Sequence record: OR062947.1 | From: Escherichia phage 348Ecol098PP | Reading direction: 5' to 3' (one strand) | DNA: 64,000 nucleotides | Part shown: positions 45,154 through 64,000 of the stretch, piece after piece | Numbering within the stretch: the first letter of the stretch is position 1 | How the letters are laid out: every line of letters starts with the position of its first letter | Translations under genes and position numbers: made by a program | Notes under the pieces: generated by a model | Databases searched by the model: none | What the model was told of the DNA's origin: nothing | What the model saw: only the letters and a program-made list of their open reading frames with translations

Positions 45154-45162
45154 ATTTATGCT

Positions 45163-45557: not shown

Positions 45558-45566
45558 GGAATCATT

Positions 45567-45839: not shown

Positions 45840-45848
45840 GGAAACTAT

Positions 45849-46046: not shown

Positions 46047-46050
46047 AACA

Positions 46051-46088
46051 GTTTACAACAAGATAGGGCTATGTTATAGTAGTCCTAT
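46051..46088 (+). promoter_or_regulatory. Early promoter GTTTAC / TGTTATAGT with imperfect IR ATAGGGCT / AGTCCTAT
   Basis: GTTTAC 46051-46056, TATAGT 46075-46080. Confidence 0.55.
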
Positions 46089-46108
46089 CAAATTAAATGG
46101 AGTCCACA

Positions 46109-46348
46109 ATGATTTATTACGAAAGTATCGGAACCAAAGTGGTTGCTAAAACCATTACTCGTGAAAAGTTTGCAAAGATATTCGATATGCGTTATAAAAA
46201 ATCTGAACACAAAGGCATCCGATTCGAAGATGCGCACTGTACAATTTGCCCTTATAATGAAGACATAAACGGTACAATCGTTCCATTGGTAGAGGCTTCA
46301 CACGATGACCTCTGGGATGAATATGATATCGCATGTCGTGAAATTTAA
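46109..46348 (+). CDS. Hypothetical protein
   Basis: 79 aa from MIYYESIG with SD GGAG. Confidence 0.4.
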   Translation: MIYYESIGTKVVAKTITREKFAKIFDMRYKKSEHKGIRFEDAHCTICPYNEDINGTIVPLVEASHDDLWDEYDIACREI

Positions 46349-46376
46349 GTTAATGAATTAATCCGAGGAAAATATT

Positions 46377-47333
46377 ATGATGTTAGTTATTGGTTCTCGT
46401 GCACTTCACTATCACGGTCTTATTGATTCTAGCGCTATCAAAAATAGTGATTGGGACTTTATTGCGGACCAAGGTTCTTGGAATGCATTCAAAAATCAAA
46501 TGATGGGTGTATATGTTCACCAAGATAACCCTAATGTTCAAGTTTTCAAATGCTTCCATAATGGACGCGAAACTCATTTTGAAGCATATATTGTTCCGGC
46601 AATCACTAATGTCCGTGAATTAGTCGGTGAACTCACTCCTGAAGATTTCACGTCTTCTTATGACCTTTTAAAATACGCCAAGAAAAATTTGACTAAAGAC
46701 CGTTTGAACGGGTTTTACTGGGCAACTCCTGAGATATGTCTTGCAATTAAGATGTCTCATCGTTTCAAGAAAAATAATCCATTCTTTTTAAAGACTATGA
46801 ACCATATTCAGTATCTTCGTGGTAAAGGTGTTACACTGAACGATGAACTTACTGAAATTATGCTGAAACGCCAGAAAGAAACCTTGAACTATGCTCACCC
46901 AGTTCTTGACACTTCTAAAAGTGCGTTCTTTAAAGATGACATCTATACATATGACCATGATACTATTCATGAAGCCATTGCACTAACAGACCGTCCAGCG
47001 TATACATTTTATATGAAAGATGGTTCTGAAGTCATGACCTCACGCGAGAAGTTCGAATCGTTACCCGAAATGATTAAACTGGCTGGTGTATACGAAGAAT
47101 CATGTGTACTAGCATTAGAACGTTCTCAAATTCCTAATGACTTTAAAATTAACCCTGAAGCCAGTTTTATGATGGCATTGGAAAAAGTCTGTACAAGCAT
47201 CACCTCCGGTTGGTTCCGTGAATACGCATACGAGAACTATTATGAAGTAGTGGCTATGTATCATAAGCTCGGCAAAAATGATTACGTCAAACGTTTCAAA
47301 CAAAATTTCCATATGGTAAAACCTTTCAAATAA
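46377..47333 (+). CDS. Hypothetical protein (318 aa)
   Basis: Long ORF; N-terminal IGSRAL...SDWDF loosely resembles a nucleotidyltransferase motif (weak). Confidence 0.45.
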   Translation: MMLVIGSRALHYHGLIDSSAIKNSDWDFIADQGSWNAFKNQMMGVYVHQDNPNVQVFKCFHNGRETHFEAYIVPAITNVRELVGELTPEDFTSSYDLLKYAKKNLTKDRLNGFYWATPEICLAIKMSHRFKKNNPFFLKTMNHIQYLRGKGVTLNDELTEIMLKRQKETLNYAHPVLDTSKSAFFKDDIYTYDHDTIHEAIALTDRPAYTFYMKDGSEVMTSREKFESLPEMIKLAGVYEESCVLALERSQIPNDFKINPEASFMMALEKVCTSITSGWFREYAYENYYEVVAMYHKLGKNDYVKRFKQNFHMVKPFK

Positions 47334-47345
47334 CTTCACAAAACT

Positions 47346-47383
47346 GTTTACGCAATTATAGGACTATGTTATAGTAGTCCTAT
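47346..47383 (+). promoter_or_regulatory. Early promoter GTTTAC / TGTTATAGT inside IR AATAGGACTA / TAGTCCTATT
   Basis: GTTTAC 47346-47351, TATAGT 47370-47375; IR arms 47357-47366 and 47374-47383. Confidence 0.55.
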
Positions 47384-47403
47384 TAAAACATGAGGAGAAT
47401 ATT

Positions 47404-47709
47404 ATGAAATTAGGCGAAACCAACCGAATTGGTCTTTTAACAATATTTGCATCACCTTTTTACGCAACTCTTTCTGTTGCAGTATTACAAAAGGCTTACA
47501 GTATGGATGGTGTTCCTGGTTTTGTATTCTTATCACCGTTTTTATTATTCGTCGGAGCTTTGTTATTATATGCCACGACTAGTTTCGACCATAATGTCTG
47601 GGTCAATTATAAATGTAAATTGTCCGAAGAAGAACACGCAGAAGCTCGTAAAAAAGCTATTGAATCTACCAATCTAGAAAATTTCATTAAAGAATGTCGA
47701 GGAAAATAA
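47404..47709 (+). CDS. Small membrane protein with C-terminal ENFIKECRGK tail
   Basis: 101 aa; two hydrophobic helices. Confidence 0.5.
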   Translation: MKLGETNRIGLLTIFASPFYATLSVAVLQKAYSMDGVPGFVFLSPFLLFVGALLLYATTSFDHNVWVNYKCKLSEEEHAEARKKAIESTNLENFIKECRGK

Positions 47710-47710
47710 T

Positions 47711-48397
47711 ATGAATAGTTCTAAAGTGTTTAATAGTCAAGCTCGTGCAGTAGGTGGTTTTGCTCATGCGATTAAAAACGACCAGATTAAAAACGAGCCT
47801 ATGTTCTTTAACTGCGATTTGAATTTTGCTTTTGATAATGGTGGTCCAATTACTCGTAGCTTTATCATGAACTTGCCAGATGATTGGAACACCGACCAGG
47901 TTGTATTTGATTCACGAGTCCACATGCTGATGCCAGGTTGGTACCCTGCTATTCCTGGATATCACCATGACGATGTTCCACGCCCTGATATTCCAGTTGG
48001 TCAACACTTTATTACTGCAGGACAACCTGACTATGACAATCCTCGTTATTTGTCTGAACATATTCTTGGTCTTGTTAACGCTGATGTGTGTCCTACTCAT
48101 TTTGCAACAGGAACTGCAGAGTTCAGTCAGATTCCTGATGGCGAACTTATCTATCGCCAGTGGCACAAAGAAGTCCTCGAAAAAATTGAAAAAGGTGAAC
48201 TAGAGAAATGGGAAGCTCCAGATCGTACTCTTCTTCAGTTTGATTGGCAAACATGGCACACTGGTTCTCGTGCAATTAGTAACGGATGGCGTTGGTTCGG
48301 ACGTGTATCTCGTAATACAGACCGAGTTAAAAAGATTACCAATGAAATTCGTGTCAACGCTCAAGTTTATCTGGAATTCCCTATGGAAGGCTGGTAA
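47711..48397 (+). CDS. Hypothetical protein (228 aa)
   Basis: Starts 2 nt after previous stop; His-rich PGYHHDD segment. Confidence 0.45.
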   Translation: MNSSKVFNSQARAVGGFAHAIKNDQIKNEPMFFNCDLNFAFDNGGPITRSFIMNLPDDWNTDQVVFDSRVHMLMPGWYPAIPGYHHDDVPRPDIPVGQHFITAGQPDYDNPRYLSEHILGLVNADVCPTHFATGTAEFSQIPDGELIYRQWHKEVLEKIEKGELEKWEAPDRTLLQFDWQTWHTGSRAISNGWRWFGRVSRNTDRVKKITNEIRVNAQVYLEFPMEGW

Positions 48398-48876
48398 TGA
48401 TTAACAATAATATAGACGATGGCAATGAAGGTATTTCGTATTATTCAGTAGATTGGACAGGATGTCCATCCTACTTAGTGAAACATATTTGCCAAGAATT
48501 TAAAATCGACCAGCCAGCAGGTATTATCGTGAACAGATACATTAATGGATATCAACCTATCGATGAAGTAATACGAACAACTCAAGCTGAGCTTGAAAAG
48601 TTTTTCAATAAGTGCCAATGGATAACAGGATGGATTATATTTGTACCGTCGGTATGGTTTTTCGGTACTAAGGTGAGTTCTTTCGGTTTTGTTGATATTA
48701 TTGCTATCTTATTAGCATCTACTATCGTAAGTATTATTGGTGGTATTATTGGTGGAGGTACTGTAGGCATCATTATTAATCTTGTTAAAAGTAGTTTACA
48801 GGAACGTAAAGACAAGATAAAAGCCAAGAATAATGAAGTTGAACGTTTTATTACCGAATGCAGGAATTTGAGATGA
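48397..48876 (+). CDS. Membrane protein with C-terminal ERFITECRNLR tail
   Basis: 159 aa; Gly/Ile-rich helices IIGGIIGGGTVGIII. Confidence 0.5.
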   Translation: MINNNIDDGNEGISYYSVDWTGCPSYLVKHICQEFKIDQPAGIIVNRYINGYQPIDEVIRTTQAELEKFFNKCQWITGWIIFVPSVWFFGTKVSSFGFVDIIAILLASTIVSIIGGIIGGGTVGIIINLVKSSLQERKDKIKAKNNEVERFITECRNLR

Positions 48877-49109
48877 GTATAGCAATTTACGTTAAATCAG
48901 AATCATGTGATAGTTATCTGTACACATACGATAAAGATGTGTCAGAAGAAAAAATCAAAGACGACCTTAATATGGACCTTGATATGTTCTGTCCTATTGC
49001 AGATTACAAACTTGCGGTCTCTAATAGTGAAAGTCCATCTAAAGAAACGCGCATTGAAGAATTTATGTCCGAATTAATGGCCAAATCATGGGACCGAGAT
49101 GATGAGTAA
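48873..49109 (+). CDS. Hypothetical protein
   Basis: 78 aa from ATG overlapping previous stop (ATGA). Confidence 0.4.
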   Translation: MSIAIYVKSESCDSYLYTYDKDVSEEKIKDDLNMDLDMFCPIADYKLAVSNSESPSKETRIEEFMSELMAKSWDRDDE

Positions 49110-49557
49110 GAAAAATAAAGTGAAAGAACTATCAGCCGGTATTATTTTCCTTACCGAAGATAAAGAGTTATTCATGGGGCGTGTAACTGGTTCTCGTCCT
49201 AAAGGTGCATTAGCTCATCGGTGGGATATTCCTAAAGGCCGTGTCGAACCTGGCGAATCTCCTATTGAAGCCGCTATTCGTGAATGCGAAGAAGAAACTG
49301 GGTTTACACAATATGACCCTGCCTTCCTGAAAGACTTAGGTGAACGTCATTACTCAGACAATAAGAATATTCATCTGTTCCAATATACCATCCCTGTAGA
49401 GCACGAGCAATTCAGAAACAGTGTTTGTAATTCCTATCATACATTCCCAGACGGACGTCAGATTCCTGAATTTGATGCATTCGCTTTAATTAAACCTTCT
49501 CAATGGGAATATGTAATGGGCAAATCATTATATAAGGTGCTCACTACCCTCCTATAA
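49099..49557 (+). CDS. nudE: Nudix hydrolase
   Basis: 152 aa; Nudix box GRVEPGESPIEAAIRECEEETG; immediately upstream of e as in T4. Confidence 0.8.
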   Translation: MMSKKNKVKELSAGIIFLTEDKELFMGRVTGSRPKGALAHRWDIPKGRVEPGESPIEAAIRECEEETGFTQYDPAFLKDLGERHYSDNKNIHLFQYTIPVEHEQFRNSVCNSYHTFPDGRQIPEFDAFALIKPSQWEYVMGKSLYKVLTTLL

Positions 49558-49565
49558 GTAATAAA

Positions 49566-49589
49566 TACCTCCTATAAACGTGGGAGGTA
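49566..49589 (+). promoter_or_regulatory. Gene e translation-initiation hairpin: IR TACCTCC / GGAGGTA with TATAAAcg in the loop
   Basis: Arms 49566-49572 and 49583-49589; right arm is the SD of e; loop carries a late-promoter-like box. Confidence 0.5.
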
Positions 49590-49591
49590 TT

Positions 49592-50080
49592 ATGAATATA
49601 TTTGAAATGCTTCGTAATGACGAAGGTCTTAGACTGACTTTATATAAAGACACTGAAGGCTTTTGGACGATTGGCATAGGCCATTTAGTAACAAAGAACC
49701 CGTCTTTAGCCGTAGCTAAAGCTGAACTTGACAGAATGATCGGTCGTAAATGCAACGGTACAATTACCCTTGATGAGGCTGAAAAGCTATTTAATGAAGA
49801 CGTTGATAAAGCCGTTCGCGGAATCTTGGGTAATGCTAAACTTAAACCGGTATACGATTCTTTAGATGCAGTTCGTCGATGTGCATTGGTCAATATGGTC
49901 TTCCAAATGGGTGTAGCAGGCGTCGCCGGTTTTACTAATTCTCTTCGTATGCTTCAACAGAAACGTTGGGATGAAGCGGCAGTAAATCTAGCCCAATCTA
50001 AATGGTATCGTCAGACACCTAATCGCGCGAAACGCGTAATCTCAACATTTAAAACAGGAACTTGGAAAGCGTATATATGA
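49592..50080 (+). CDS. e: Endolysin (T4 lysozyme)
   Basis: 162 aa from [32 protein letters not shown]...; close match to remembered T4 lysozyme. Confidence 0.95.
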
Positions 50081-50358
50081 AAACATATAGTGAATTTTTA
50101 TCAGAATCTATTCTTAACGAAGCTACTGACACATTTGCAACTAAGCTAGGTGCAGCTTTGGTTGAAGCTGAAAGTCTATTAGCACGTATTTCTGAACTTG
50201 CTAGTAAGATAGATACTCGCAAATTTGAGCGCACCAGTGATATCGTTAAGCTTGAAGCCTTATTGCGTATGTGCGATAAACCGGAAGAAATCGCTAAGAA
50301 CGGCTCGCTGATGAAACAACGTCTTGAAAAATATATTTCAGGCGCTTCAGAAAAATAG
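50077..50358 (+). CDS. Internal-protein-like, leader [10 protein letters not shown]
   Basis: 93 aa; start overlaps e stop (ATGA); CTS-like leader. Confidence 0.55.
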
Positions 50359-50359
50359 T

Positions 50360-50413
50360 GTTTACTTCCTCCAAGGGTTTTGATACTATACATTCATCAA
50401 CTACTTGGAGGAA
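50360..50413 (+). promoter_or_regulatory. Early promoter upstream of denV with 10-bp IR TTCCTCCAAG / CTTGGAGGAA pairing the -35/-10 spacer with the SD
   Basis: GTTTAC 50360-50365, TACTAT 50384-50389; IR arms 50366-50375 and 50404-50413. Confidence 0.6.
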
Positions 50414-50416
50414 ATT

Positions 50417-50830
50417 ATGACTCGTATCAATTTAACACTTGTTTCTGAACTGACCGACCAACACCTTATGGCTGAGTATCGTGAATTACCACGCGTATTT
50501 GGTGCAGTCCGTAAACATGTTCAAAACGGTAAACGTGTAAAGGATTTTAAAATCTCTCCAACATTTATCTTAGGCACAGGTCACGTAACATTCTTTTACG
50601 ACAAACTCGAATTTTTACGTTTACGACAAATCGAGCTAATCGCTGAATGTTTGAAACGTGGTTTCAAAATCAAGGACACGACAGTCCAGGATATTTCCGA
50701 CATCCCTGCCGAATTTCGTAATAATTATGTCCCGTCCGAAGCGTCCATTGCGATAAGTCAAGCGCGCTTAGATGAAAAAATTGCTCAACGTCCGACTTGG
50801 TACAAATACTATGGTAAATCAATTTACTAA
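50417..50830 (+). CDS. denV: Endonuclease V (pyrimidine dimer DNA glycosylase)
   Basis: 137 aa from [12 protein letters not shown]...; close match to remembered T4 DenV. Confidence 0.93.
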
Positions 50831-50836
50831 GGAAAA

Positions 50837-51097
50837 ATGAAAATGTATCAAGAATTTATCGTTGAAGCAGATGCCAAAGGTCCTAAATTTAAAGTTAAAG
50901 CTTTCATTGGTGATGCGGAAGACTTTGGCTCATTAAAACGTAATGGGTATTCTTTCTTAGGTGGCAATGGTAAAGAAATCAACACCTATGCAAAACGTAG
51001 TGAAATTGCTTATGTTGTAGCAAGTCCTAAAGTAGATGTTGACGATATTGGATATGATTTTAACAACTTCGGAATTATTTCTGGCGGTAAAGCTTAA
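50837..51097 (+). CDS. Internal-protein-like, leader MKMYQEFIVE
   Basis: 86 aa; CTS-like leader. Confidence 0.55.
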   Translation: MKMYQEFIVEADAKGPKFKVKAFIGDAEDFGSLKRNGYSFLGGNGKEINTYAKRSEIAYVVASPKVDVDDIGYDFNNFGIISGGKA

Positions 51098-51100
51098 ACG

Positions 51101-51130
51101 GTTTACGCTTAAGTATTAATATGGTATAAT
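51101..51130 (+). promoter_or_regulatory. Early promoter GTTTAC / TGGTATAAT
   Basis: GTTTAC 51101-51106, 18-nt spacer, TATAAT 51125-51130. Confidence 0.55.
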
Positions 51131-51161
51131 TACTCTATCAAAACAAACAAGGAAACAAAAA

Positions 51162-51476
51162 ATGAAAACGTATAAAGAATTTATTGCAGAATCCGCCAAC
51201 CAACGCGTTGAAGGTGGTTATATTTGGATTGAACAAGTTGAGCCACCGAGCCGCACTTCTACAGGTAAATGGAAAATTACTGTTGACGGTCCTGGCGGTA
51301 AACGTAGGACTCTTAAAGAAATTAATGGGTACTATGAAGAAGCTCTTTCGGATGCAGGAACTTACATGATGCAAATCATGATTAAAAACCCTGAAAACCG
51401 TTTTGCAGCTAAAGTCTTCCGTCGTATTGGTAATAAACTTTATGATGCATACTCTAAAAACTTCCCTAAAGAATAA
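51162..51476 (+). CDS. Internal-protein-like, leader MKTYKEFIAE
   Basis: 104 aa; CTS-like leader; early promoter 51101-51130. Confidence 0.6.
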   Translation: MKTYKEFIAESANQRVEGGYIWIEQVEPPSRTSTGKWKITVDGPGGKRRTLKEINGYYEEALSDAGTYMMQIMIKNPENRFAAKVFRRIGNKLYDAYSKNFPKE

Positions 51477-51501
51477 CATAAATTAAAACAATAGGAACAA
51501 A

Positions 51502-51831
51502 ATGAAAACATATCAGGAGTTTATCACTGAAGTTACATTATCTGCGGAACAGAAAGCTGCTATCGAAGAAGGTAAAAATCCCAAAGTAACATATAAAGTA
51601 AATAGTAAAGGCGTTTTTGATGGCTTGGTTCAAGACCCTGAATTGAAAAAAGTTCTTTCTAAAACTAATGCGTACTTTGCTCCTAAATTTAACACAGCCG
51701 GTGTACTTATTGGATTGGATGTATTCAACTCTAAAGGTGTTCTATCTAATGCCTTTGGTTATGCCGCTAACAAAATTACCAAAGCCGCATGGGAATCCAA
51801 TACTAAACAAGCTCAAAAGCCTAGAGTATAA
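51502..51831 (+). CDS. Internal-protein-like, leader MKTYQEFITE
   Basis: 109 aa; CTS-like leader. Confidence 0.6.
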   Translation: MKTYQEFITEVTLSAEQKAAIEEGKNPKVTYKVNSKGVFDGLVQDPELKKVLSKTNAYFAPKFNTAGVLIGLDVFNSKGVLSNAFGYAANKITKAAWESNTKQAQKPRV

Positions 51832-52003
51832 TTCTTGCCTAATAAAGGGAAACGCAACCTCTCCTTATGAACGTCGAGTCCTCTAAGTGATGTACCTTTT
51901 CCAACCTGTAATAAGGTCGAGCGCAATGCGGTAATGGGTTTACATAGCGAGTCGAAGGACCTAACATGTGCCATGGAATGGCCCAAACCTTAAGAGAAAT
52001 AAT

Positions 52004-52543
52004 ATGAGAACATTTTTAACTGGTCCTTATCTATCCCTGATGAATGCTTTTACACACCATTCTGATGCTAGAGTAGAAGAAATTTGTAAGAATGGTTATG
52101 TCCCACCATTTGAAGACGTACTCAAGCAGTACTGTACACTTCGTTTAGACGGTGGCAGACAATCAGGTAAATCAACCGCAATAACTAATTTTGCTGTTAA
52201 TTGGCTGTATGATGGTGGAACAGTTATTGTTCTTTCTAATACTTCAGCTTATGCTAAAATTTCTGCTGGCAACATTAAAAAAGAATTTTCTCGTTATTCT
52301 AGCGATGATATTCGATTCCGTTTATTTACTGATTCTGTTCGTAGTTTTATTGGCAATGAAGGTTCTAAATTCCGTGGATTAACGCTTTCTCGTATTCTGT
52401 ATATAATTGACGAGCCTATTAAAGCTCCTGATATGGATAAGATTTACAATGTCCACATTAAAACAGTACAGCACTGCTGCAAAAGCAAATATTGCATCGG
52501 CGGTAATGCTCGTCCTCAATTTTTTGTGATTGGAATGCAATGA
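52004..52543 (+). CDS. Small P-loop NTPase
   Basis: 179 aa from MRTFLTG; Walker A GGRQSGKST, Walker B-like ILYIIDEP. Confidence 0.45.
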   Translation: MRTFLTGPYLSLMNAFTHHSDARVEEICKNGYVPPFEDVLKQYCTLRLDGGRQSGKSTAITNFAVNWLYDGGTVIVLSNTSAYAKISAGNIKKEFSRYSSDDIRFRLFTDSVRSFIGNEGSKFRGLTLSRILYIIDEPIKAPDMDKIYNVHIKTVQHCCKSKYCIGGNARPQFFVIGMQ

Positions 52544-52848
52544 TGACCACTATTGAAGTTTTTGAGTATTGTTATAACAGCCCAGTATGCAATAAAAGGG
52601 CTCTTGTAGAAAATTATGAGATTTACCATTTTAAACCTAAACGATATCGTTTGACTAAAGGTCCGTTCGCAGGGCAGCAGGTTCTTTGTACTGCTCCTAA
52701 TGCACGGTTGATGACTAGTATTCCGCATTTCAAAATGGAATTTATTGATGGGCCATTTAAGGGATTAATCACTCAAAGTTTAATGGCGTTTAATTCCGAC
52801 CCATTTTTGATTAAAGAACAATCTTGGATAAATTTATTTTCTAATTGA
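52540..52848 (+). CDS. Hypothetical protein
   Basis: 102 aa, ATGA overlap with upstream. Confidence 0.4.
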   Translation: MMTTIEVFEYCYNSPVCNKRALVENYEIYHFKPKRYRLTKGPFAGQQVLCTAPNARLMTSIPHFKMEFIDGPFKGLITQSLMAFNSDPFLIKEQSWINLFSN

Positions 52849-52854
52849 GGTTAT

Positions 52855-53217
52855 ATGAAAGCATATCAAATTCTTGAAGGTGCACATAAAGGCACTATTT
52901 ATTTTGAAGACGGTACTCAAGCCCGGATTATTGTCTCTAAGACTTTTAAAGAAGACTCTATTGTAGACCCGGAAATTTTCTATGGTTTGAATGCCCGTGA
53001 AATTGAAATTGAACATCAACCTAAAGTTAAAATTGAAGGTGGTCAACATCTGAACGTTAACGTTCTGCGTCGTGAAACTCTAGAAGATGCAGTTAAGCAT
53101 CCGGAAAAATATCCGCAGCTGACCATCCGTGTATCCGGTTATGCAGTTCGCTTTAACTCTCTGACTCCAGAACAGCAGCGCGACGTTATCGCTCGTACCT
53201 TTACTGAGAGTCTATAA
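52855..53217 (+). CDS. Autonomous glycyl-radical cofactor (GrcA/YfiD-like; T4 tk.4/Y06I type)
   Basis: 120 aa; C-terminal ...[60 protein letters not shown] contains RVSGY glycyl-radical motif. Confidence 0.8.
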
Positions 53218-53441
53218 TGGCTAAATTGATTATAGAAGGGTCTGAAGATGTTTTAAAATGTTTTGCCGCCTGGTTTAGTTGCTCAGGCGAGCAATCATTC
53301 ATTGAAGCATTTAGAACGGGTGATATTACTGGAAAATATCCGTCAACCGATATCACTGTACGCGGATATGGTATTAATGAGCCTATCCAATTGGTCGAAT
53401 ATGACCTTGCCACCGATGAGGAAATTCCTTATGTCGATTGA
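53217..53441 (+). CDS. Hypothetical protein
   Basis: 74 aa ORF. Confidence 0.4.
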   Translation: MAKLIIEGSEDVLKCFAAWFSCSGEQSFIEAFRTGDITGKYPSTDITVRGYGINEPIQLVEYDLATDEEIPYVD

Positions 53442-53697
53442 AGACATCAAAGGCTACAAGCCGCATACCGATGATAAAATCAGTAAAGTGAACGCTATTA
53501 AAGACGCAGAAGTCCGTCTTGGATTGTTGTTTGATGCTCTGATTGAAGAAGCATATATCTTGAAAGAAAACGAAACAGAGCAACAAACCAAAGAAGATAT
53601 GGATGCAGTGCAGGCTCTTAAGTATGCTAAGCAACATCTAAAAGAAGCCAGCATGTGGGCATGTCGTGCGGTATTTCGACCTGAGGAAAAATACTAA
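53431..53697 (+). CDS. Hypothetical protein
   Basis: 88 aa from MSIEDIKGYK with SD GAGGAA. Confidence 0.4.
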   Translation: MSIEDIKGYKPHTDDKISKVNAIKDAEVRLGLLFDALIEEAYILKENETEQQTKEDMDAVQALKYAKQHLKEASMWACRAVFRPEEKY

Positions 53698-53912
53698 TGG
53701 CTTCTACTATTACTGGGTTATTGGACTTTCAAGAAAAGGTCAACAAAATTTGTAGTGAATACTTAAAGTATCTTGAAGAAGACCTTGAAGATTGTAAGGA
53801 AGAAGGCGAAGAAGACTATGCTGACCAGCGTCGTCGCCAAATCGAAGAGATGAGGCATTTCGCCAATATGGTATCTAAAGAATCTTGGGCTTTAACTCCA
53901 TTTTATCAATAA
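53697..53912 (+). CDS. Hypothetical acidic protein
   Basis: 71 aa ORF. Confidence 0.4.
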   Translation: MASTITGLLDFQEKVNKICSEYLKYLEEDLEDCKEEGEEDYADQRRRQIEEMRHFANMVSKESWALTPFYQ

Positions 53913-53916
53913 AGTA

Positions 53917-53967
53917 GTTTACTTCTCCTCTAGTTGTGTTACTATAGACCTGTCAACTAGAGGAGAA
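53917..53967 (+). promoter_or_regulatory. regB early promoter with perfect 14-bp IR TTCTCCTCTAGTTG / CAACTAGAGGAGAA (spacer vs SD)
   Basis: GTTTAC 53917-53922, TACTAT 53940-53945; IR arms 53923-53936 and 53954-53967. Confidence 0.65.
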
Positions 53968-53973
53968 ATCAAA

Positions 53974-54432
53974 ATGACTATCAATTCAGACGTTTTTATC
54001 CGCCGTAATAAACTCCGTCGAATCTTTGAAACGGAGTTCCGCAAAATAAATGCCGGTATAAAAGATGCTGCAAAGTCTCTTGGACTACCAGGCTTTCATA
54101 TCAAGTATTCTCAACATCTCTTAGATCGTGCCATCCAGAGAGAAATAGATGAGAATTACGTTTTTGAATTATTTCATAAAGTAAAAAATCATGTTAAAGA
54201 AGTTGCAGAATTTTTATCAATGCCGGCACGTCCAGATGTTGATGAAGATTTTGTCGAAGGTGTCGAATATCGCCCAGGCCGTTTAGAAATAACTGATGGA
54301 AATCTTTGGTTAGGACTTACAGTTTGTCGCGAAAATCCAGCATTCAAAATGAAGACTCTTCAATGCAGAATGGCTATTATTAACAGTAAACGACTACCAG
54401 GAAAAGCTTCTAAAGCAGTGATTAAAATCTAG
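53974..54432 (+). CDS. regB: RegB endoribonuclease
   Basis: 152 aa; MTINSDVFIRRNKLRR...YSQHLLDRAIQREIDE...RLPGKASKAVIK matches remembered T4 RegB. Confidence 0.9.
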   Translation: MTINSDVFIRRNKLRRIFETEFRKINAGIKDAAKSLGLPGFHIKYSQHLLDRAIQREIDENYVFELFHKVKNHVKEVAEFLSMPARPDVDEDFVEGVEYRPGRLEITDGNLWLGLTVCRENPAFKMKTLQCRMAIINSKRLPGKASKAVIKI

Positions 54433-54440
54433 AGGTAAAC

Positions 54441-54983
54441 ATGAGAAAAGCACTACTCGCTGGTCTATTTGCTCTTTCGTTATCAGCACATAGCTCCGAG
54501 CATACTTTTAGTAATGTCCAACTCGATAACTTGAATTATGCTTATCAGTTTGGGGAACAGTTTTCTAAGGACGGAAAATTTAAAACGCATGAAAATATGC
54601 ATAAGAAAGGACTTGGATACATAATGGCCGCAATACTATGGCAAGAATCATCTGCCGGTATTAATCTTAAAGATAAGAAAGGTCACCATGCGTATGGAAT
54701 GTTCCAAAACTATCTACCGTCAATGAGGGCAAGAATTAACCAGCTTGGTTATAATATGACTGATGCCCAAATTAAGAAAATGCTATCTAAGCGGTCTAAT
54801 TCAGCCAGATGGGCTTATATCGAATTTTCTTATTGGTTAAATATACATAATGGGGATATAAGAAAAGCTATATCCTCATATAATGCGGGATGGAAGACAA
54901 GTGCTGGAAGTAAATATGCTTCTGAAGTCCTAGAAAAGGCTAATTACCTTAAATCAAATAAACTACTGGAAATAAAAGAATGA
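54441..54983 (+). CDS. Secreted lytic transglycosylase (SLT-domain) protein
   Basis: 180 aa; N-terminal signal peptide; SLT-like motifs WQESS, AYGMFQ, YNAG. Confidence 0.55.
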   Translation: MRKALLAGLFALSLSAHSSEHTFSNVQLDNLNYAYQFGEQFSKDGKFKTHENMHKKGLGYIMAAILWQESSAGINLKDKKGHHAYGMFQNYLPSMRARINQLGYNMTDAQIKKMLSKRSNSARWAYIEFSYWLNIHNGDIRKAISSYNAGWKTSAGSKYASEVLEKANYLKSNKLLEIKE

Positions 54984-55327
54984 CCAAAATGTTGGCTTTA
55001 ATAGTTGGCTTGGTTTCATTTAACGCTCTTGCTAATACTACATATACTGATGTAACGGAGTATACAAACAGAACGGCGTCTGATTATTGTGGTAAAAGTC
55101 AAGAGTGTAAAGTAGATTTTTCACAAAAATTGTTATATGCGTATAAAGACGGAGAAAAAGATGGGGCGTCTAGTAGGTTCAAGGCGTCTACCTTAATTAA
55201 AAGATACTATAAAAAATGGCAAATATTAGAATGCTCGGTGGCGGAACCTAAAGATAAGGCAGCATGCAATTCTATGGTGGACCGTCTAGTTGACTCTTAT
55301 ACTAGAGGACTTGCAGCAAGTGATTAA
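54980..55327 (+). CDS. Predicted exported/periplasmic protein
   Basis: 115 aa; signal peptide MTKMLALIVGLVSFNALA; 4 Cys. Confidence 0.45.
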   Translation: MTKMLALIVGLVSFNALANTTYTDVTEYTNRTASDYCGKSQECKVDFSQKLLYAYKDGEKDGASSRFKASTLIKRYYKKWQILECSVAEPKDKAACNSMVDRLVDSYTRGLAASD

Positions 55328-55784
55328 AAACTATATCAAGGGCGATATTGTCGCCCTGTTTTCTAAAGGTAATAATATTGCTCATGGGTGTAATTGTTTT
55401 CATACAATGGGCGCTGGTGTGGCAGGACAATTAGCAAAGGCTTATCCAAAAATTCTGGAAGCCGATAAACTTCAAACCGAATTCGGAGACGAGTCTAAAC
55501 TCGGGACTTATTCGGTTTATGAAAAATATTTTAAGACCCATAAAGCTTATTGCTTTAATCTTTATACACAGTTTGAGCCGGGACCTAATTTTGAGTACTC
55601 TGCTTTAATGAATTGTATAATAGAATTAAATGAATTCGGAAAGAATAAGATAACAAAGCCTGTAATTTATATGCCAAGAATTGGTGCAGGTATTGGTGGT
55701 GGAAACTGGGACGTCATCGAAGAGATTTTAGATACGTATTCTACTAAACTAGAAATTGTGATTGTTGATTGGGAACCTAAATGA
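55320..55784 (+). CDS. Macro-domain protein (ADP-ribose binding/processing)
   Basis: Macro-like motifs GDIV...IAHGCNC...GAGVAGQLAKA and IGAGIGGG; start uncertain (GTG 55320 or TTG 55290). Confidence 0.5.
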   Translation: MIKNYIKGDIVALFSKGNNIAHGCNCFHTMGAGVAGQLAKAYPKILEADKLQTEFGDESKLGTYSVYEKYFKTHKAYCFNLYTQFEPGPNFEYSALMNCIIELNEFGKNKITKPVIYMPRIGAGIGGGNWDVIEEILDTYSTKLEIVIVDWEPK

Positions 55785-55963
55785 AATTAACTAAAGAAGA
55801 GAAAGCTAAACTGTTCGAACTTATCCATGACCTATTGGATGAGCAAGCAGCCACCAATGCGTACGATGAATATGCTCCTTTAACAGATGAAGAATATCAA
55901 GCATTGATGGAATCATTTGACAGGAAAGAACAAGAACTCATTGACTACGTGAATTCACTATAA
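55781..55963 (+). CDS. Hypothetical acidic protein
   Basis: 60 aa ORF overlapping upstream stop. Confidence 0.4.
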   Translation: MKLTKEEKAKLFELIHDLLDEQAATNAYDEYAPLTDEEYQALMESFDRKEQELIDYVNSL

Positions 55964-55972
55964 GGGACTCTT

Positions 55973-56554
55973 ATGGCTAGTTTAATTTTTACATATGCCG
56001 CTATGAACGCTGGTAAGTCTGCTTCATTACTTACTGCCGCACATAACTATAAAGAACGTGGCATGGGTGTATTAGTTCTTAAACCGGCTATTGATACTCG
56101 TGATTCAAAGGGTGAAATAGTCTCTCGTATTGGTATTCGTCAGGATGCCAATATAATTACAAAAGACATGGATATCTTTGAATTCTATAAATGGGCTGCA
56201 GCACAAAAGGATATTCACTGCGTATTTGTTGACGAAGCTCAGTTCTTAACTACTGAAAAGGTGTATCAACTTAGTCGTATTGTTGACGTATACAATGTGC
56301 CAGTAATGGCATATGGACTACGAACAGATTTTAAAGGTAATCTATTTGAAGGTTCTCAAGCATTAATGGCTATTGCCGATAAGCTTGTTGAACTTAAAGG
56401 TGTCTGTCATTGTGGTAAAAAGGCCACAATGGTAGCTAGAGTCACGGAAGATGGACTTCCAATTACAGATGGCAGTCAAATTGAAATTGGTGATACCGAT
56501 AGATATGTGTCATTATGCCGGAAGCATTGGAATGATTTGACAGGGTTGTTATAA
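55973..56554 (+). CDS. tk: Thymidine kinase
   Basis: 193 aa; P-loop AMNAGKSA; C-terminal Cys cluster; size matches T4 Tk. Confidence 0.9.
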   Translation: MASLIFTYAAMNAGKSASLLTAAHNYKERGMGVLVLKPAIDTRDSKGEIVSRIGIRQDANIITKDMDIFEFYKWAAAQKDIHCVFVDEAQFLTTEKVYQLSRIVDVYNVPVMAYGLRTDFKGNLFEGSQALMAIADKLVELKGVCHCGKKATMVARVTEDGLPITDGSQIEIGDTDRYVSLCRKHWNDLTGLL

Positions 56555-56581
56555 ATACTAATATCTAACCAAGAGGTATAT

Positions 56582-56794
56582 ATGCAGCAATTAAACGAAA
56601 GACAACTTCGTAATCTTACTGTAACCCAATTGGATGAAATCCGAAGAGAATTAGGACATTCTATTTCTCATTTAAACGAGGATATCCGTCAAACTGGTTC
56701 TAAAGCTGATTATACACGCAAGCGCAAGCTGGAAAAATACCTCACAGATGTTAAGGCCGTCCAAAGGCGAAAAATAAATACTGGCCAAAATTAA
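56582..56794 (+). CDS. Hypothetical protein (T4 rI.-1 position)
   Basis: 70 aa ORF between tk and rI. Confidence 0.45.
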
Positions 56795-56806
56795 CAGGAG
56801 GCCTAT

Positions 56807-57109
56807 ATGGCCTTAAGAGCGATAGCTGTCATGGCGATGCTGGGGTTTTTTGCAGCAACAACTCCTATCGTTGGTACTGCATATATCGACCCATATTTTG
56901 ATAACTTTATGGAATCAGGGATTAAAAACGTATATACTTTGTTTGAAATTCAAAATGTCGAGAATTCTGAAAAATTCTATAAGTATATGGCAAAGCATTA
57001 CAAAAATAGCCCCTGTGATGATGCATTTGAATGTCATGAACAAGGCATAAAAACTGCCAGACAATTTGCCGAGTTCATGAAAATAAAATTAGAGCCTACA
57101 TCTATCTAA
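56807..57109 (+). CDS. rI: Lysis inhibition regulator RI (antiholin)
   Basis: 100 aa; signal-anchor MALRAIAVMAMLGFFAA then DPYFDNFMESGIKNVY...; resembles remembered T4 RI. Confidence 0.8.
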   Translation: MALRAIAVMAMLGFFAATTPIVGTAYIDPYFDNFMESGIKNVYTLFEIQNVENSEKFYKYMAKHYKNSPCDDAFECHEQGIKTARQFAEFMKIKLEPTSI

Positions 57110-57112
57110 TTT

Positions 57113-57145
57113 ACTAGCCCCTTCCGAAAGGTTGGGGCTTTTTGG
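57113..57145 (+). terminator. Rho-independent terminator after rI
   Basis: Same hairpin+T-run module as 41852-41884. Confidence 0.65.
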
Positions 57146-57154
57146 CATCTATCA

Positions 57155-57206
57155 GTTTACTTCTCCTCAGGTTGTGTTATAGTAAACCTTACTTACTAGA
57201 GGAGAA
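57155..57206 (+). promoter_or_regulatory. Early promoter with IR TTCTCCTC / GAGGAGAA (spacer vs SD)
   Basis: GTTTAC 57155-57160, TATAGT 57179-57184; IR 57161-57168 and 57199-57206. Confidence 0.55.
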
Positions 57207-57210
57207 CGTT

Positions 57211-57390
57211 ATGTCACGTAAAGAAAAAATTTCTAAGTTAATGTTTTTGATTGAAGAGTACGCTAATGCGGTATCTGATTGGGAAAATGCTCATGGTTGC
57301 GAAGATGGAGACATCGACATTAACAGAGCTATGAAAAAGATGGCTGATACGCACACCGAATTGCAAATGTATGTTAACGAGATTATGTGA
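57211..57390 (+). CDS. Hypothetical protein
   Basis: 59 aa from MSRKEK with SD GAGGAGAA. Confidence 0.4.
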   Translation: MSRKEKISKLMFLIEEYANAVSDWENAHGCEDGDIDINRAMKKMADTHTELQMYVNEIM

Positions 57391-57397
57391 GGACATT

Positions 57398-57607
57398 ATG
57401 CTTTACGATTATACTGGAAAATCTGAAGACGGTGTACTTGAACTTTTACCTGAAAGTGCTGAAGATGATGATATGACGACGGTGATGTTTTGTAAAAATG
57501 GCCCTGGGGATAAGGGATGGATTTATCTTCGTCAAGAAAATGACTTAATTGTTTTGGACCCTAAACAAGTTGAAGAACTTTATCAACATTTAAAACACAA
57601 TCGGTAG
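57398..57607 (+). CDS. Hypothetical acidic protein
   Basis: 69 aa from MLYDYTGK. Confidence 0.4.
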   Translation: MLYDYTGKSEDGVLELLPESAEDDDMTTVMFCKNGPGDKGWIYLRQENDLIVLDPKQVEELYQHLKHNR

Positions 57608-57645
57608 TTTACAACTTGGTAGGACTATGTTATAGTAGTCCTACC
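57607..57645 (+). promoter_or_regulatory. Early promoter inside IR GGTAGGACTA / TAGTCCTACC
   Basis: GTTTAC 57607-57612, TATAGT 57631-57636; IR 57618-57627 and 57636-57645. Confidence 0.55.
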
Positions 57646-57664
57646 AAAACAAATGGAGAACAAA

Positions 57665-60203: not shown

Positions 60204-60235
60204 TGGGGACCTTCGGGTCCCTTTAGGGGGTTAAA
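60204..60235 (+). terminator. Rho-independent terminator
   Basis: GGGGACC-TTCG-GGTCCC then TTTAGGGGG (related to 42556-42585). Confidence 0.55.
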
Positions 60236-60251
60236 ATATTTAAAAAAGTAG

Positions 60252-60279
60252 TGTACATGCTTTTAGGATATGTTATTAT
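60252..60279 (+). promoter_or_regulatory. Early promoter TGTACA / TGTTATTAT
   Basis: -35 60252-60257, TATTAT 60274-60279. Confidence 0.45.
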
Positions 60280-60317
60280 AGACCTATCGAAACGAAATGA
60301 GTAAATTGGAGAATAAA

Positions 60318-61298
60318 ATGTTCAACGTTCAAATCAAAAAAGGTATCTATCGTAATAACGAAATCTCTGGTTCTTATGTTGCCACAAAGACCTGGTTCCC
60401 GGCAAAGCTTAATCCTGAATGTTCCCACTTAGGTGATGGTAAAATTTTCGTTATTATTGATGGTTCTGAACGTGGAGTATGGGTCTTCAAATCAGACATC
60501 GTAATGGAAGGAGTTGAGACATCACCAGTTGCAGTTGTTGAAAGCACTGAAGATATGAAAACTCGTATCAACAAACGCTTTAAAGTAATGAACATGATGA
60601 CGAATGGCATTATCGATGGCAAAATTCGTTCACTCATTATTTCAGGTGCAGCCGGTATTGGTAAGACGTATTCTCTGGATAAAGCACTTAATAATGCTAA
60701 TGATAATGGTTTCATCAAATACAAAAGCATTAATGGTAAAATCTCTGGTATTGGCCTTTACGAACAACTTTGGCTCAACCGTGATGCAGACAGCGTTCTC
60801 TTAATCGACGACGTTGACGTATTCTCAGATATGGACATCTTGAACCTTCTTAAAGCAGCATTAGATACAGGCGATAAACGCAAAGTTTGTTGGAGCACTG
60901 CGTCATCTTATCTCGAGGATAAGGGTATTGATAAAGAATTTGAGTTTGAAGGTACTATCGTTTTCATTACAAACGTTGATATAGATAAAGAGTTAGAACG
61001 GGGTTCGAAACTTGCTCCACACCTTCAAGCTTTAGTATCTCGTTCAGTGTATCTCGACCTTGGAGTACACTCTAATGAAGAGATTATGGTTCGAGTTGAA
61101 GATGTAATATTATCTACTGACATGATGCAGAAACGTGGTCTGACGGATGCAGAAACGTATAAAGCATTGTCCTGGATGAAGGCTAATGTATCTCGTCTTC
61201 GCAATGTATCATTACGTACCGCTCTTTATGTAGCAGATTTTATTTCAACTGATAAAGATGGTTGGGAGGAAATCTCTGAAGTAACTTTACTGAAATAA
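60318..61298 (+). CDS. AAA+/P-loop ATPase with N-terminal ~100 aa domain
   Basis: 326 aa from MFNVQIKKG; Walker A GAAGIGKT, Walker B VLLIDDVD, sensor-1-like FITN. Confidence 0.5.
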   Translation: MFNVQIKKGIYRNNEISGSYVATKTWFPAKLNPECSHLGDGKIFVIIDGSERGVWVFKSDIVMEGVETSPVAVVESTEDMKTRINKRFKVMNMMTNGIIDGKIRSLIISGAAGIGKTYSLDKALNNANDNGFIKYKSINGKISGIGLYEQLWLNRDADSVLLIDDVDVFSDMDILNLLKAALDTGDKRKVCWSTASSYLEDKGIDKEFEFEGTIVFITNVDIDKELERGSKLAPHLQALVSRSVYLDLGVHSNEEIMVRVEDVILSTDMMQKRGLTDAETYKALSWMKANVSRLRNVSLRTALYVADFISTDKDGWEEISEVTLLK

Positions 61299-61435
61299 GC
61301 TTATAGGAAGTTCTGAGGTAACAAAAGCCATAAAGATGAATAATCATATGGCTTACCTCAAAGAAGGACACCAGGAACCTACTGAGGGCATAGAAATATT
61401 TAAAATAATGATGTACAAATCAAAGAGGATATGTT

Positions 61436-61723
61436 ATGGATTTTATGCAAAAAATTAAAGCCGCAGTCGAACTGTATGCTCATCGTATGGTTAGTTCTAC
61501 GATGCAATATAGTGAGGAGGTTCGCCAGGACTCTTCCTTGAAAGGAAAAACTAAAGCCTTAATTACCTTAGATCGTTTGCAAAAGAATGCCATAGAGATG
61601 CTCCAGTACGACAAGGGTGTATATAAGAAAGAACAGGAAGAGAAACTTAAATCTGAAAAATTACAAAAAATCCCGAAGTCTGTTTGGTTCAGTGGAAAAA
61701 ATACCGAAAAAAGTTTCTTTTAG
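61436..61723 (+). CDS. Hypothetical protein
   Basis: 95 aa ORF. Confidence 0.4.
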   Translation: MDFMQKIKAAVELYAHRMVSSTMQYSEEVRQDSSLKGKTKALITLDRLQKNAIEMLQYDKGVYKKEQEEKLKSEKLQKIPKSVWFSGKNTEKSFF

Positions 61724-61725
61724 TT

Positions 61726-61760
61726 GTTTACAAGGTCTATGGTTATGTTATTATAGACCT
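61726..61760 (+). promoter_or_regulatory. Early promoter GTTTAC / TGTTATTAT with IR AGGTCTA / TAGACCT
   Basis: GTTTAC 61726-61731, TATTAT 61749-61754; IR 61733-61739 and 61754-61760. Confidence 0.5.
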
Positions 61761-61781
61761 ATCAACTACTGGAGGTAAAAC

Positions 61782-62309
61782 ATGAACGCTAAAGATATTT
61801 TCAACCTGGTAAATTATAACGACGGTAAATTTAAATCTGAAGCACAAAGCAAGTTCTTTAATGACGTTGCTTATGGTAACGAGATTACCGTGGACGGAGG
61901 TCAGATTTTCAAATCTCGCTGGAATTGGATTGTTATCATCGATTCAGTTGGAATTGTGGAAGTCTACAAAAACACTAACAAAAAACGTACATTATTCTGG
62001 TCTCGTGAAACTAACGAGCAGTACAAAAAGGATAAAGCATCTCGTTTATCCAAAGTAACCCAGGAAGATATCGACTTCATCAAGAAAGATATCGAGATGT
62101 ACGAAAATTTAATTGCTGAAGACCAGGCAGTACTCGATAAGTTTGATGAAATTAAAGCTTCTCGTGAAATCCCTGACTTCATGAAAGAAACAGTAAACGA
62201 ACGATACGCTCTCACTTCAGAACGTATTGCAAACTATACAAAACAGAAAGCAGAACGTATTAGTACTCTTCGGAAATTTGAAGAACGTTTAAAGACGGTT
62301 CACGCATAA
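61782..62309 (+). CDS. Hypothetical protein
   Basis: 175 aa ORF behind early promoter stem-loop. Confidence 0.45.
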   Translation: MNAKDIFNLVNYNDGKFKSEAQSKFFNDVAYGNEITVDGGQIFKSRWNWIVIIDSVGIVEVYKNTNKKRTLFWSRETNEQYKKDKASRLSKVTQEDIDFIKKDIEMYENLIAEDQAVLDKFDEIKASREIPDFMKETVNERYALTSERIANYTKQKAERISTLRKFEERLKTVHA

Positions 62310-62371: not shown

Positions 62372-63367
62372 ATGAGCATTACATCTGATGCGGTAAAACA
62401 TGAAATTAACGGTTTATGTGCTTCACAGATTAAAGTGTGGTTTAAAGACCATAACGATCGCAGAGCACTTAATTATGAACAAATTGCTATCCAAGTTCAT
62501 CAATTACTGGTTAGTAAATTTGATTTTCATATGCCGTCTGAAATCTATACTAATCTGCCGCGAGCACTTATTAAAGCGTGTAAAGGTTATGGAAAATCAA
62601 TGGCTGATGGAATCTTCAGCGCGCTGAATAAACTTAACGTTCTGTCGATGATTAACTCTAACAACATCCTGCGTAATCTAGGACGTACTGATTTGTTCGG
62701 CCGTGAACAGTGTAAAATGCCTTTGAAATGGATTGTTGCTCATCTTAACGAGAACCAAACACGTTTTATGGCCGTAACAGCACGCTTACAAATGGGCCTA
62801 GATCGTCAGATGAACTTTAAAACTCATCCACGTTATTCAGGTTCAACTGACTTTTATAAATGTGAGCTTCAAAAGGTTGCAGGTAAAACTGTCTTAGTAG
62901 TTCGTGTAACGTTTGAAGGACGACGTCAAGGATATTTTGACATAATCGGCTCCGGGCTTAAACATTGTGGATTTATCGACGAAGTTGATATCAAGCGAGA
63001 CGGCATTGGATACCGTATTGGATATGTTTGTACTCTTAAAGAAGAGATTTCAGGACCAGCACCAGGACTAAAAGACGTTAGATATAAAGACGAGCTCGTT
63101 GAAGAAATAAAAGAAGTTGAATATGATATCAACCAAGAAGATGCTCTTAAAGACCTTATTGATGAACCGAACCAAGACGTTATTCCTGTTCAGAAATTTG
63201 AATCAAAACATGCTGAGCAAATCAAATACTTTGAAGCTTTGATTAACGAACTTAATGTAACTATTCAACAGACTGACGATGAAATCTCACGATTAGCAGG
63301 TTTAAACGGTAAAAATAAAACAGAACGAGCTAATCTTATTCAGGTAGTAAAACTTCTTAAGGAATGA
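62372..63367 (+). CDS. Hypothetical protein (331 aa)
   Basis: Long ORF behind MotA-box type promoter. Confidence 0.45.
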   Translation: MSITSDAVKHEINGLCASQIKVWFKDHNDRRALNYEQIAIQVHQLLVSKFDFHMPSEIYTNLPRALIKACKGYGKSMADGIFSALNKLNVLSMINSNNILRNLGRTDLFGREQCKMPLKWIVAHLNENQTRFMAVTARLQMGLDRQMNFKTHPRYSGSTDFYKCELQKVAGKTVLVVRVTFEGRRQGYFDIIGSGLKHCGFIDEVDIKRDGIGYRIGYVCTLKEEISGPAPGLKDVRYKDELVEEIKEVEYDINQEDALKDLIDEPNQDVIPVQKFESKHAEQIKYFEALINELNVTIQQTDDEISRLAGLNGKNKTERANLIQVVKLLKE

Positions 63368-63396
63368 TGTACAACCAAGGATGGTTGGAGTATAAT
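63368..63396 (+). promoter_or_regulatory. Promoter TGTACA / TATAAT (17-nt spacer)
   Basis: TGTACA 63368-63373, TATAAT 63391-63396. Confidence 0.5.
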
Positions 63397-63422
63397 AAAT
63401 TTTTCAACATGAGGAATATAAA

Positions 63423-64000
63423 ATGGCTTTTATTACACGTAGAGAACTTATCAAAGAATTTACCTCGAACGCATATACTCCAGGACCTAATCCTATCCGT
63501 ATGCCTGTAAAGACTCCTGAAGAGATTGAGGAAATCTGTTCATATTATGGGATTACTTCTCGTAAGTTTACTCAATTTGAATGCGTTACTAACACACCCG
63601 TTAAAGAGTTCATTAAAAATGGCGAGTTCAGCCGTTTATTGGCCAAACAGAAACTTCGTAATTTTTGTATTGGCGGTGAAGGACAATATTTCGCTAAGCA
63701 GTTCCGGAATAACCTTAACAATCTGATGGCCATTGCTTCTCGTATTCGTCCTCAAGCAATTAACATGAAACATTTGAAATATACTTACGATAAGTTGGAA
63801 ATCATGGTTATCAGTGAGAACGAGTTCACTCTCACGTATAAACCTAAGAATGATAACGTTGCTCGTGTATTCCACCAAGCGTTGGAAGTTTTAGGTGATA
63901 ATATTCACCAGATTAAAGCAATTTATTCTCGTGAGCTTAATATTATCGACCCTATCAAGAATAAGGGCCATATCGCTATCCAAGCTCGTGTATCTATTGG
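63423..64000 (+). CDS. Hypothetical protein, 3' end beyond window
   Basis: Open frame from ATG 63423 (MAFITRRELIKEF...) to window end; SD GAGGAA. Confidence 0.45.
   Translation, partial: MAFITRRELIKEFTSNAYTPGPNPIRMPVKTPEEIEEICSYYGITSRKFTQFECVTNTPVKEFIKNGEFSRLLAKQKLRNFCIGGEGQYFAKQFRNNLNNLMAIASRIRPQAINMKHLKYTYDKLEIMVISENEFTLTYKPKNDNVARVFHQALEVLGDNIHQIKAIYSRELNIIDPIKNKGHIAIQARVSI

Follow-up and report, generated by a model that had tools for sequence, protein, structure and literature searches.

Putative promoter-stem-loop units as probable crossover sites in the early gene region of an RB69-like phage

The sequence motifs recurring in the early gene region of Escherichia phage 348Ecol098PP (record OR062947.1; the whole analysed stretch of 64,000 nucleotides is called the window below) are, with a probability that we put at roughly 0.8, parts of about 21 promoter-early stem-loop units (PeSLs), between which crossovers would have swapped early genes and left hybrid units behind, the site at position 61407 being a degraded unit. 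The mosaic pattern noticed in the preliminary description of this sequence is real and had been correctly interpreted, and it is of an already known kind.

By its sequence matches the window belongs to an RB69-like T4-type phage (Mosigvirus): the final 6 kb matched about 150 Mosigvirus (RB69-like, Straboviridae) genomes from end to end at an identity of at least 98%, and the mobD-nrdC region was 98.5% identical to Mosigvirus genomes. The part between 38 and 64 kb, placed via annotated relatives, represents the hyperplastic region of early genes and includes 57B, the internal protein (IP) genes, tRNAs, e, denV, regB, tk, rI, mobD and nrdC.11 to nrdC.5, all on the plus strand. The ORF at 60318 is nrdC.10 and the ORF at 61436 is nrdC.9, which matched Pfam family DUF7203 (E = 1e-22) in an alignment running from profile position 13 onwards. 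Two tRNAs were the sole matches of an Rfam scan, with none in the 61300-61440 spacer. The genes for tRNA-Met and tRNA-Arg are located at 41034-41189 (the AV115 annotation has tRNA-Asn instead of tRNA-Arg), and the ORFs flanking them (40439-40954 and 41208-41552) vary in their presence among the relatives.

A pattern scan together with the list of exact repeats revealed about 21 units of the T4 early-promoter type on the plus strand, each consisting, in this order, of an AT-rich tract, a -35 box, a spacer of 16–18 nt, a -10 box, a start region, a leader with GGAG and an ATG. The pattern TTTACW or TGTACA, 16–18 nt and TAnnnT was matched in 21 units, which makes them predicted promoters. The -35 sequence was GTTTAC, with TGTACA in four units and TATACA in one, and the tract preceding it contained A/T-rich runs, such as AAAATATTTAAAAAAGTA and AAAATTAAAAATAATG in the -35-anchored sequences. 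The -10 box varied between TACTAT, TATAGT, TATTAT and TATAAT, usually with TG on its 5' side, while the start region AGnCCTATCAA was conserved across the units and was followed by a leader of 20–30 nt ending in GGAG; the family core in a gap-free alignment, TGTTAyWATAGnCCTATCAA, was highly conserved. All 21 units ended in GGAG or GAGG plus the ATG of a plus-strand ORF and were placed between neighbouring genes. A profile of the -10/leader half found (E<0.01) 14 sites in the 38–64 kb region and one at 6388, and no site in the 7–37 kb region, about 30 kb of late genes; since the profile was derived from these very units, only the absence elsewhere is informative. We infer that the units would have both promoter and terminator activity.

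Compared to shuffled controls, 8 of the 21 units folded with z <= -2 (range -2 to -6.7) and a ninth reached -1.6. The hairpin arms flanked the -10 box in most of the folding units (TAGGACTA/TAGTCCTA, AGGTCTAT/ATAGACCT and GAGAGCA/TGCTCTC), and an inverted repeat around the -10 box was present in about half of the units, several others retaining the 3' arm only. A single-register pairing test with all 21 units gave a modest difference (59% paired vs 55% in the shuffled set), with registers differing among the units; one hairpin register common to the whole family was weakly supported and was rejected.

The individual units differ in the parts that they have in common with each other. The motif AATGATGTACAA indeed occurred in exactly three exact copies (0.023 expected from a base-composition model), as had been reported, but two of the coordinates had to be corrected: the copies start at 42974, 61407 and 63363, not at 61411 and 63364 in the last two cases. 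Those at 42969 and 61402, extended on the 5' side, have 17 nt in common. In two of the copies TGTACA (42979 and 63368) was followed, as described before, by 17 nt and a -10 box, TACTAT and TATAAT, respectively. The first of these copies belongs to a chimeric predicted promoter before the RB69ORF145c homologue (e42979; 42949-43044, plus strand): its 5' half, with the AT tract, ATGATGTACAA and the hairpin CACCaaggatGGTG, resembles the sequences at 61402 and 63363, while the -10 box, leader, SD and first codons make up its 3' half (42998-43044), which 6395-6441 repeats without a difference. The second copy belongs to an intact predicted promoter before nrdC.5 (63338-63425, plus strand; AATGATGTACAA, hairpin CAACCaaggatGGTTG and TATAAT). 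The twin of 42998-43044 lies within the early promoter and leader (6346-6441, plus strand) that precede an ORF of 89 aa, and the 47 identical nucleotides shared by the two sites extend from the -10 box into the third codon. This ORF, together with its own early promoter (6346-6704 for both), is located on the strand opposite to the late genes 24 (5050-6333) and 23 (6757-8325), as an island between them that is present in about 120 relatives and missing from some.

The leader AAATGAGTAAAT(T)GGAGAA(T)AAAATG was found, in agreement with the preliminary description, at 39575 and 60295, preceding the start codons at 39598 and 60318. The corresponding module AAATGAGTAAATGGAGAAATAAAATG occupies 39575-39600 in a predicted promoter with a TATACA -35 and a TATAGT -10 box (39502-39600, plus strand) and 60295-60320 in the predicted nrdC.10 promoter (60222-60320, plus strand; TGTACA and TATTAT), upstream of which a putative terminator hairpin GGGGACCttcGGGTCCC is located at 60205. 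An ATG without SD within the AAATGAGTAAAT module (39577 and 60297) is in frame with the true start 21 nt downstream, and mechanical ORF calls lengthened the genes at 39598 and 60318 by 7 codons. The second leader had been given as ATCAACTAC(A/T)GGAGG for four genes; literally it matched only at 61761, and what is common to the sites at 6411, 43014, 50396 and 61761 is the 9-mer ATCAACTAC, followed by 1–3 variable bases and then GGAG before the genes at 6435, 43038, 50417 and 61782. Units with leaders of this kind include the predicted promoters of denV (50331-50419, plus strand; leader ATCAACTAC), with a spacer TTCCTCCAAG that pairs with the SD-containing CTTGGAGGAA (z = -5.3), and of nrdC.8 (61697-61784, plus strand; leader ATCAACTACTGGAGG), with the hairpin AGGTCTAT/ATAGACCT around the -10 box. 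The genes behind the common leaders are unrelated, as had been claimed: BLASTP comparison of the downstream proteins gave no hit below E=0.07. The predicted frd.3 promoter (e43192; 43162-43251, plus strand) has kept the 3' stem arm TAGTCCTATC without a matching 5' arm, while a single predicted promoter at 47316-47406 (plus strand) has the perfect hairpin TAGGACTA/TAGTCCTA. Further plus-strand members of the family (span 38799-57655) have their -35 boxes at 38829, 39204, 42608, 43477, 45164, 46052, 51102, 51939, 53918, 57156, 57608 and 57716.

The units share 20–90 nt of near-identical sequence, so that the very active homologous recombination of the phage could cross over between them, and we infer this to be the mechanism of exchange. 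A crossover between two units, whether these lie in the same genome or in different phages infecting one cell, would delete, insert or replace the intervening gene and leave a hybrid unit in its place, which would account for -35 halves, -10/hairpin halves and leaders being found in differing combinations. The window was compared with six relatives (RB69, JS09, SHSML-52-1, AV115, mogra and ECO111 5-P), and the main weight of the argument for a probable exchange is borne by the hybrid junctions. The window has e42979, ORF145c, e43192 and frd.3, while SHSML-52-1 has no ORF145c and a single hybrid promoter directly before frd.3, with the 5' half of e42979, including the AATGATGTACAA -35 box, the -10/leader of e43192 as the 3' half, and the crossover within TACTATAGAC/CTATCAA. 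At the site corresponding to window position 47345, JS09 has two units around an extra 66-aa ORF (in the left one, the leader AAATGAGTGAATGGAGA represents the module found at 39575 and 60295), whereas the window has one hybrid unit. The -10/leader part of the nrdC.10 unit was joined to GTTTACTTT in RB69, ECO111 5-P, AV115 and SHSML-52-1 and to AAAATATTTAAAAAAGTAGTGTACA (GTGTACA) in the window, the break at 60258, just 3' of the -35 box, separating the -35 and -10 halves. Before the gene at 39598 the window has the AAATGAGTAAAT leader, and SHSML-52-1 has a ATCAACTACTGAGGAG leader (of the ATCAACTAC...GGAG type) and another promoter. Finally, in phage LF82-2 the promoter of 6346-6426 stands before a different 88-aa ORF and an annotated homing endonuclease, and the identity stops right after GGAG.

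In addition, the divergent relative ECO111 5-P (L002) has a 216-aa ORF (4155-4811) at the unit matching window position 47345 and an 80-aa ORF (19757-19999) between nrdC.10 and nrdC.9; a Pfam search for a homing-endonuclease role assigned neither of these two inserted ORFs to a family.

Among the six genomes, 17 of the 46 distinct breakpoint edges fell within units (p = 1e-8), which make up 7.25% of the region. With a null restricted to non-coding sequence the enrichment was weak (14 of 23 breakpoints in units vs 40% expected, p = 0.04), so that much of the raw enrichment is an intergenic effect, which may in part reflect the survival of rearrangements with ends between genes. This marginal value is what would be expected if genes had been gained and lost via homing endonucleases, microhomology-mediated or illegitimate recombination, with the units as bystanders and the intergenic breakpoints as those that merely survived. 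The homing endonuclease annotated beside the alternative ORF in the g24/g23 island of LF82-2, the many breakpoints within ORFs or at gene overlaps of the ATGA type, and the comparison of RB69 with the window at 61299-61435, where only an AAA microhomology was seen, point in the same direction. We nevertheless regard such an origin of the pattern as unlikely, since at several junctions the two units that flank a variable gene are combined into an exact hybrid, which is a signature of homology-mediated crossover, the overlaps at junctions reach 29–30 nt, and PeSL-PeSL mini-circles were demonstrated experimentally in RB49/phi1 (PMC2839356).

Crossover between units would not be the only process acting in this region. 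About half of the breakpoints were located inside ORFs or at tightly packed boundaries without a promoter unit (40432, 47994 and 55777), and whole genes were lost or replaced in relatives at such packed or overlapping boundaries (40432-40944, 47994-49224 and 55773-55973), which suggests that a second, PeSL-independent mechanism is also at work. Three IP-type genes (38885-38914, 39253 and 51162-51190) have an N-terminal MKT(Y/F)xEFI targeting sequence in common, and breakpoints of the relatives at the end of this stretch suggest that coding homology can serve as a crossover site as well. A GC-rich putative terminator hairpin TAGCCCCTTCCGAAAGGTTGGGGCTTTTT at 41854-41882 (plus strand) has an exact 29-nt second copy at 57115-57143; both copies are located at rearrangement breakpoints, three relatives breaking at the first. 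At the second site ECO111 5-P has an insertion of about 600 nt between two copies of this hairpin.

The order of the remaining parts identifies the site at 61407, a hot spot of rearrangement, as a truncated promoter unit. Just 3' of the nrdC.10 stop codon there is a hairpin without a T-run (61315-61359, plus strand; GAGGTAA..AGCCATA...TATGGCT TACCTC), annotated as a terminator in the SA79RD record, and the fold of 61290-61450 gave z = -2.2. Downstream of this hairpin come AAATATTTAAAATAATGATGTACAA, a spacer and GGATATGTTAT: the AT-rich tract with the -35 block AAAATAATGATGTACAA occupies 61402-61418 (plus strand; TGTACA at 61412-61417) and exactly repeats the 17 nt of 42969-42985, GAGGA is found at 61423-61427, and the spacer/extended -10 block GGATATGTTAT (61427-61440, plus strand) ends with the relic -10 TATGGA (61435-61440). 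Bases 2-4 of this relic are the ATG of nrdC.9 (61436), with GAGGA 8 nt upstream. Within the window the 11-mer GGATATGTTAT occurred in three copies only, at 61427 and, as part of intact promoters, at 39547 and 60266, where it stands 14–15 nt from the -35 box; its position at 61407 at the same distance as in the intact promoters places the break inside the -10 hexamer. The alignments of the site to e39532, e60252 and e42979 likewise started at the AT tract and ended inside the -10 box, and a generic promoter scan, which called 60252, 61727 and 63368, made no call at 61412. The preliminary description was right that this copy is without a usable -10 box (TGTACA, 17 nt, TATGGA) but not that it is fused directly to the SD; its "deletion derivative" holds in so far as a promoter truncated down to half of its -10 box is present, which may have arisen by deletion or by insertion.

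The nrdC.10/nrdC.9 junction had three forms among the window, RB69 and ECO111 5-P. RB69 has 50 nt between the two genes (…ctgaaatgaggaaattATG) and no window-type spacer, while ECO111 5-P has there the additional ORF of 80 aa, and the three forms differ in the first ten or so codons of nrdC.9, homology returning at 61469. The intact hairpin, AT tract, -35 box, spacer and GGATATGTTAT block, together with the missing -10 box, fit a degraded PeSL. Rearrangement would have left all of these parts and the first half of the -10 box in place, with homology ending within the -10 box, so that the old spacer now provides the SD (GAGGA) and the old -10 box the start codon of nrdC.9; this reuse is suggested by the positions of the elements. 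The window-type spacer of 137 nt was conserved to 95–100% in 143 phage records, which says little, given an overall identity of about 97% among these genomes. With the spacer as query, a distant blastn search matched this locus only and identified no donor context. A 40-aa ORF at 61336-61458 was dismissed as a hidden gene, its ATG being ATT in SHSML-52-1 and an indel in an A-run shifting the frame in three relatives, and the spacer is non-coding. The absence of both the MotA box TGCTT and the late TATAAATA from 61380-61440 led to the rejection of a middle or late promoter as well.

The same conservation, the kept AT tract, -35 box, TG before the relic -10 and T-A-T of the hexamer, and a region that folds better than shuffled sequences could also indicate a working, unusual promoter or regulatory element retained for its action on nrdC.9. 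This seems quite improbable to us: the relic -10 has no final T, transcription starting about 7 nt downstream would begin past the ATG and SD of nrdC.9, no middle or late promoter box accompanies the site, RB69 and ECO111 5-P manage without the spacer, and its conservation says little at the given overall identity.

The conserved inverted-repeat core around the -10 box (for example TAGGACTATGTTATAGTAGTCCTATCAA) might be more than a patch of homology and constitute a dedicated exchange site, its hairpin or cruciform being cut by a structure-specific nuclease of the phage. We consider this very doubtful; if true, the units would form a genuine cassette system comparable to integron attC sites, and the same hairpins would permit translation from the own promoter and not from read-through RNA (denV, regB). 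In the denV and regB units (50361-50419 and 53918-53976) a spacer stretch of 10–14 nt can pair without any mismatch with the leader, the GGAG SD included (TTCCTCCAAG/CTTGGAGGAA and TTCTCCTCTAGTTG/CAACTAGAGGAGAA, respectively), and the SD would thus be hidden in read-through RNA but not in RNA from the own promoter. An IMG/VR scan with the 15-mer AATAATGATGTACAA hit more than 100 unrelated contigs and was discarded, the pattern being too short for this database.

Whether the common blocks exceed what a promoter consensus alone would produce was evaluated by column permutation, in which each alignment column was shuffled among the units 1000 times, so that the consensus was kept and the linkage between columns was lost. 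For the -10-anchored block the longest shared run was 47 nt (shuffle mean 13.5, maximum 24), 21 pairs had at least 12 nt in common (mean 2.0) and 13 pairs at least 16 nt (mean 0.16), values attained by none of the 1000 shuffles; for the -35-anchored block there were six pairs with at least 12 nt in common vs 0.63 expected. The preliminary description would have been abandoned if generic consensus alone explained the blocks, and with sharing that the shuffles never attained this is not the case. Both comparisons that it had proposed, of the sequence with itself and with related genomes, revealed repeats far above chance and recombined blocks in the six relatives, and its picture of an assembly from interchangeable -35, -10/stem-loop and leader blocks is supported by the column shuffling and by the hybrids. 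The notion that strong selection, without any exchange of DNA, led each gene independently to one regulatory consensus (promoter, start region and RegB-sensitive GGAG leader), for which the family-wide conservation of the core, the single runs of 17–20 nt that consensus can attain within it (permutation maximum 24) and the RB69 early-promoter consensus already derived by Nolan et al. (2006) might speak, is already largely refuted by the shuffling and the hybrid junctions, as the identity between 6395 and 42998 extends into coding sequence, the pairs with at least 16 common nucleotides are far in excess, an identical AGTAAAT insertion is found in two leaders, and the hybrid units track gene presence and absence in the relatives.

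Exchange through such units would explain how small early genes can be gained, lost or swapped without broken expression, since a gene either brings its promoter and leader along or meets a ready-made set. In genome annotation, the units make cassette boundaries and relic promoters recognisable in the approximately 170 RB69-like phages sequenced so far, among them many candidates for phage therapy.

PeSLs were defined in RB49/phi1 by Arbiol et al. (2010; PMC2839356), where the stem-loops mostly lie between the boxes or over the -10 box and where promoter and terminator activity, as well as crossover mini-circles, were shown experimentally. PeSLs of T4/PST (TTTACW-N17-TAYWAT with AGNA...TCNT stems) and of KVP40/nt-1 were added by Comeau et al. 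(2014; PMC4122927). Like the PeSLs of RB49/phi1 and T4/PST, the window units consist of an upstream stop codon, AT-rich tract, -35, -10, SD and ATG, about half of them with a stem-loop at the boxes, and with their activity here presumed; they are also placed in hyperplastic regions by small ORFs and at indels or replacements between close relatives, with hybrids at the junctions. The T4/PST consensus with its AGNA...TCNT stem fits most of the window units (AGGAcTA...TAgTCCT); in contrast to the known PeSLs, many of them have a TGTACA -35, a TATAGT -10 and a strongly conserved AGnCCTATCAA start region. In the second class of degraded ("1/2") PeSLs in the legend to Fig. 5 of Comeau et al. (PMC4122927), the -35 and the stem-loop are intact and the -10 is missing. 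The sequence 61315-61440, with the same parts and located at an indel between relatives, matches this class; it differs in the apparent reuse of the 61407 remnant as SD and start codon, which that legend does not mention.

In T-even phages, the internal protein genes are flanked by conserved regulatory sequences (Repoila et al., 1994; cited in PMC2839356). The IP-type genes of the window (38892, 39253 and 51162) are similar in that their junctions in relatives fall at the promoter/SD and at the shared N-terminal targeting sequence. The window units differ in not being confined to the IP loci: they extend across the early region of 26 kb, and one is found in the cluster of capsid genes. With the morons of lambdoid phages and with integron cassettes the units have in common that small self-contained genes with their own expression signals are placed between existing genes; unlike these, they come without an integrase, an attC-type site or a difference in base composition and are apparently exchanged via ordinary homology. 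Nolan et al. (2006), who predicted 57 early promoters in RB69, argued that the novel ORFs of T4-like phages are not moron-like. Since a literature search located no description of PeSLs for RB69-like (Mosigvirus) phages, the finding amounts to the correct, renewed recognition of a known mechanism in one more lineage; it adds a T4-like group to the PeSL picture and leaves the picture itself unchanged.
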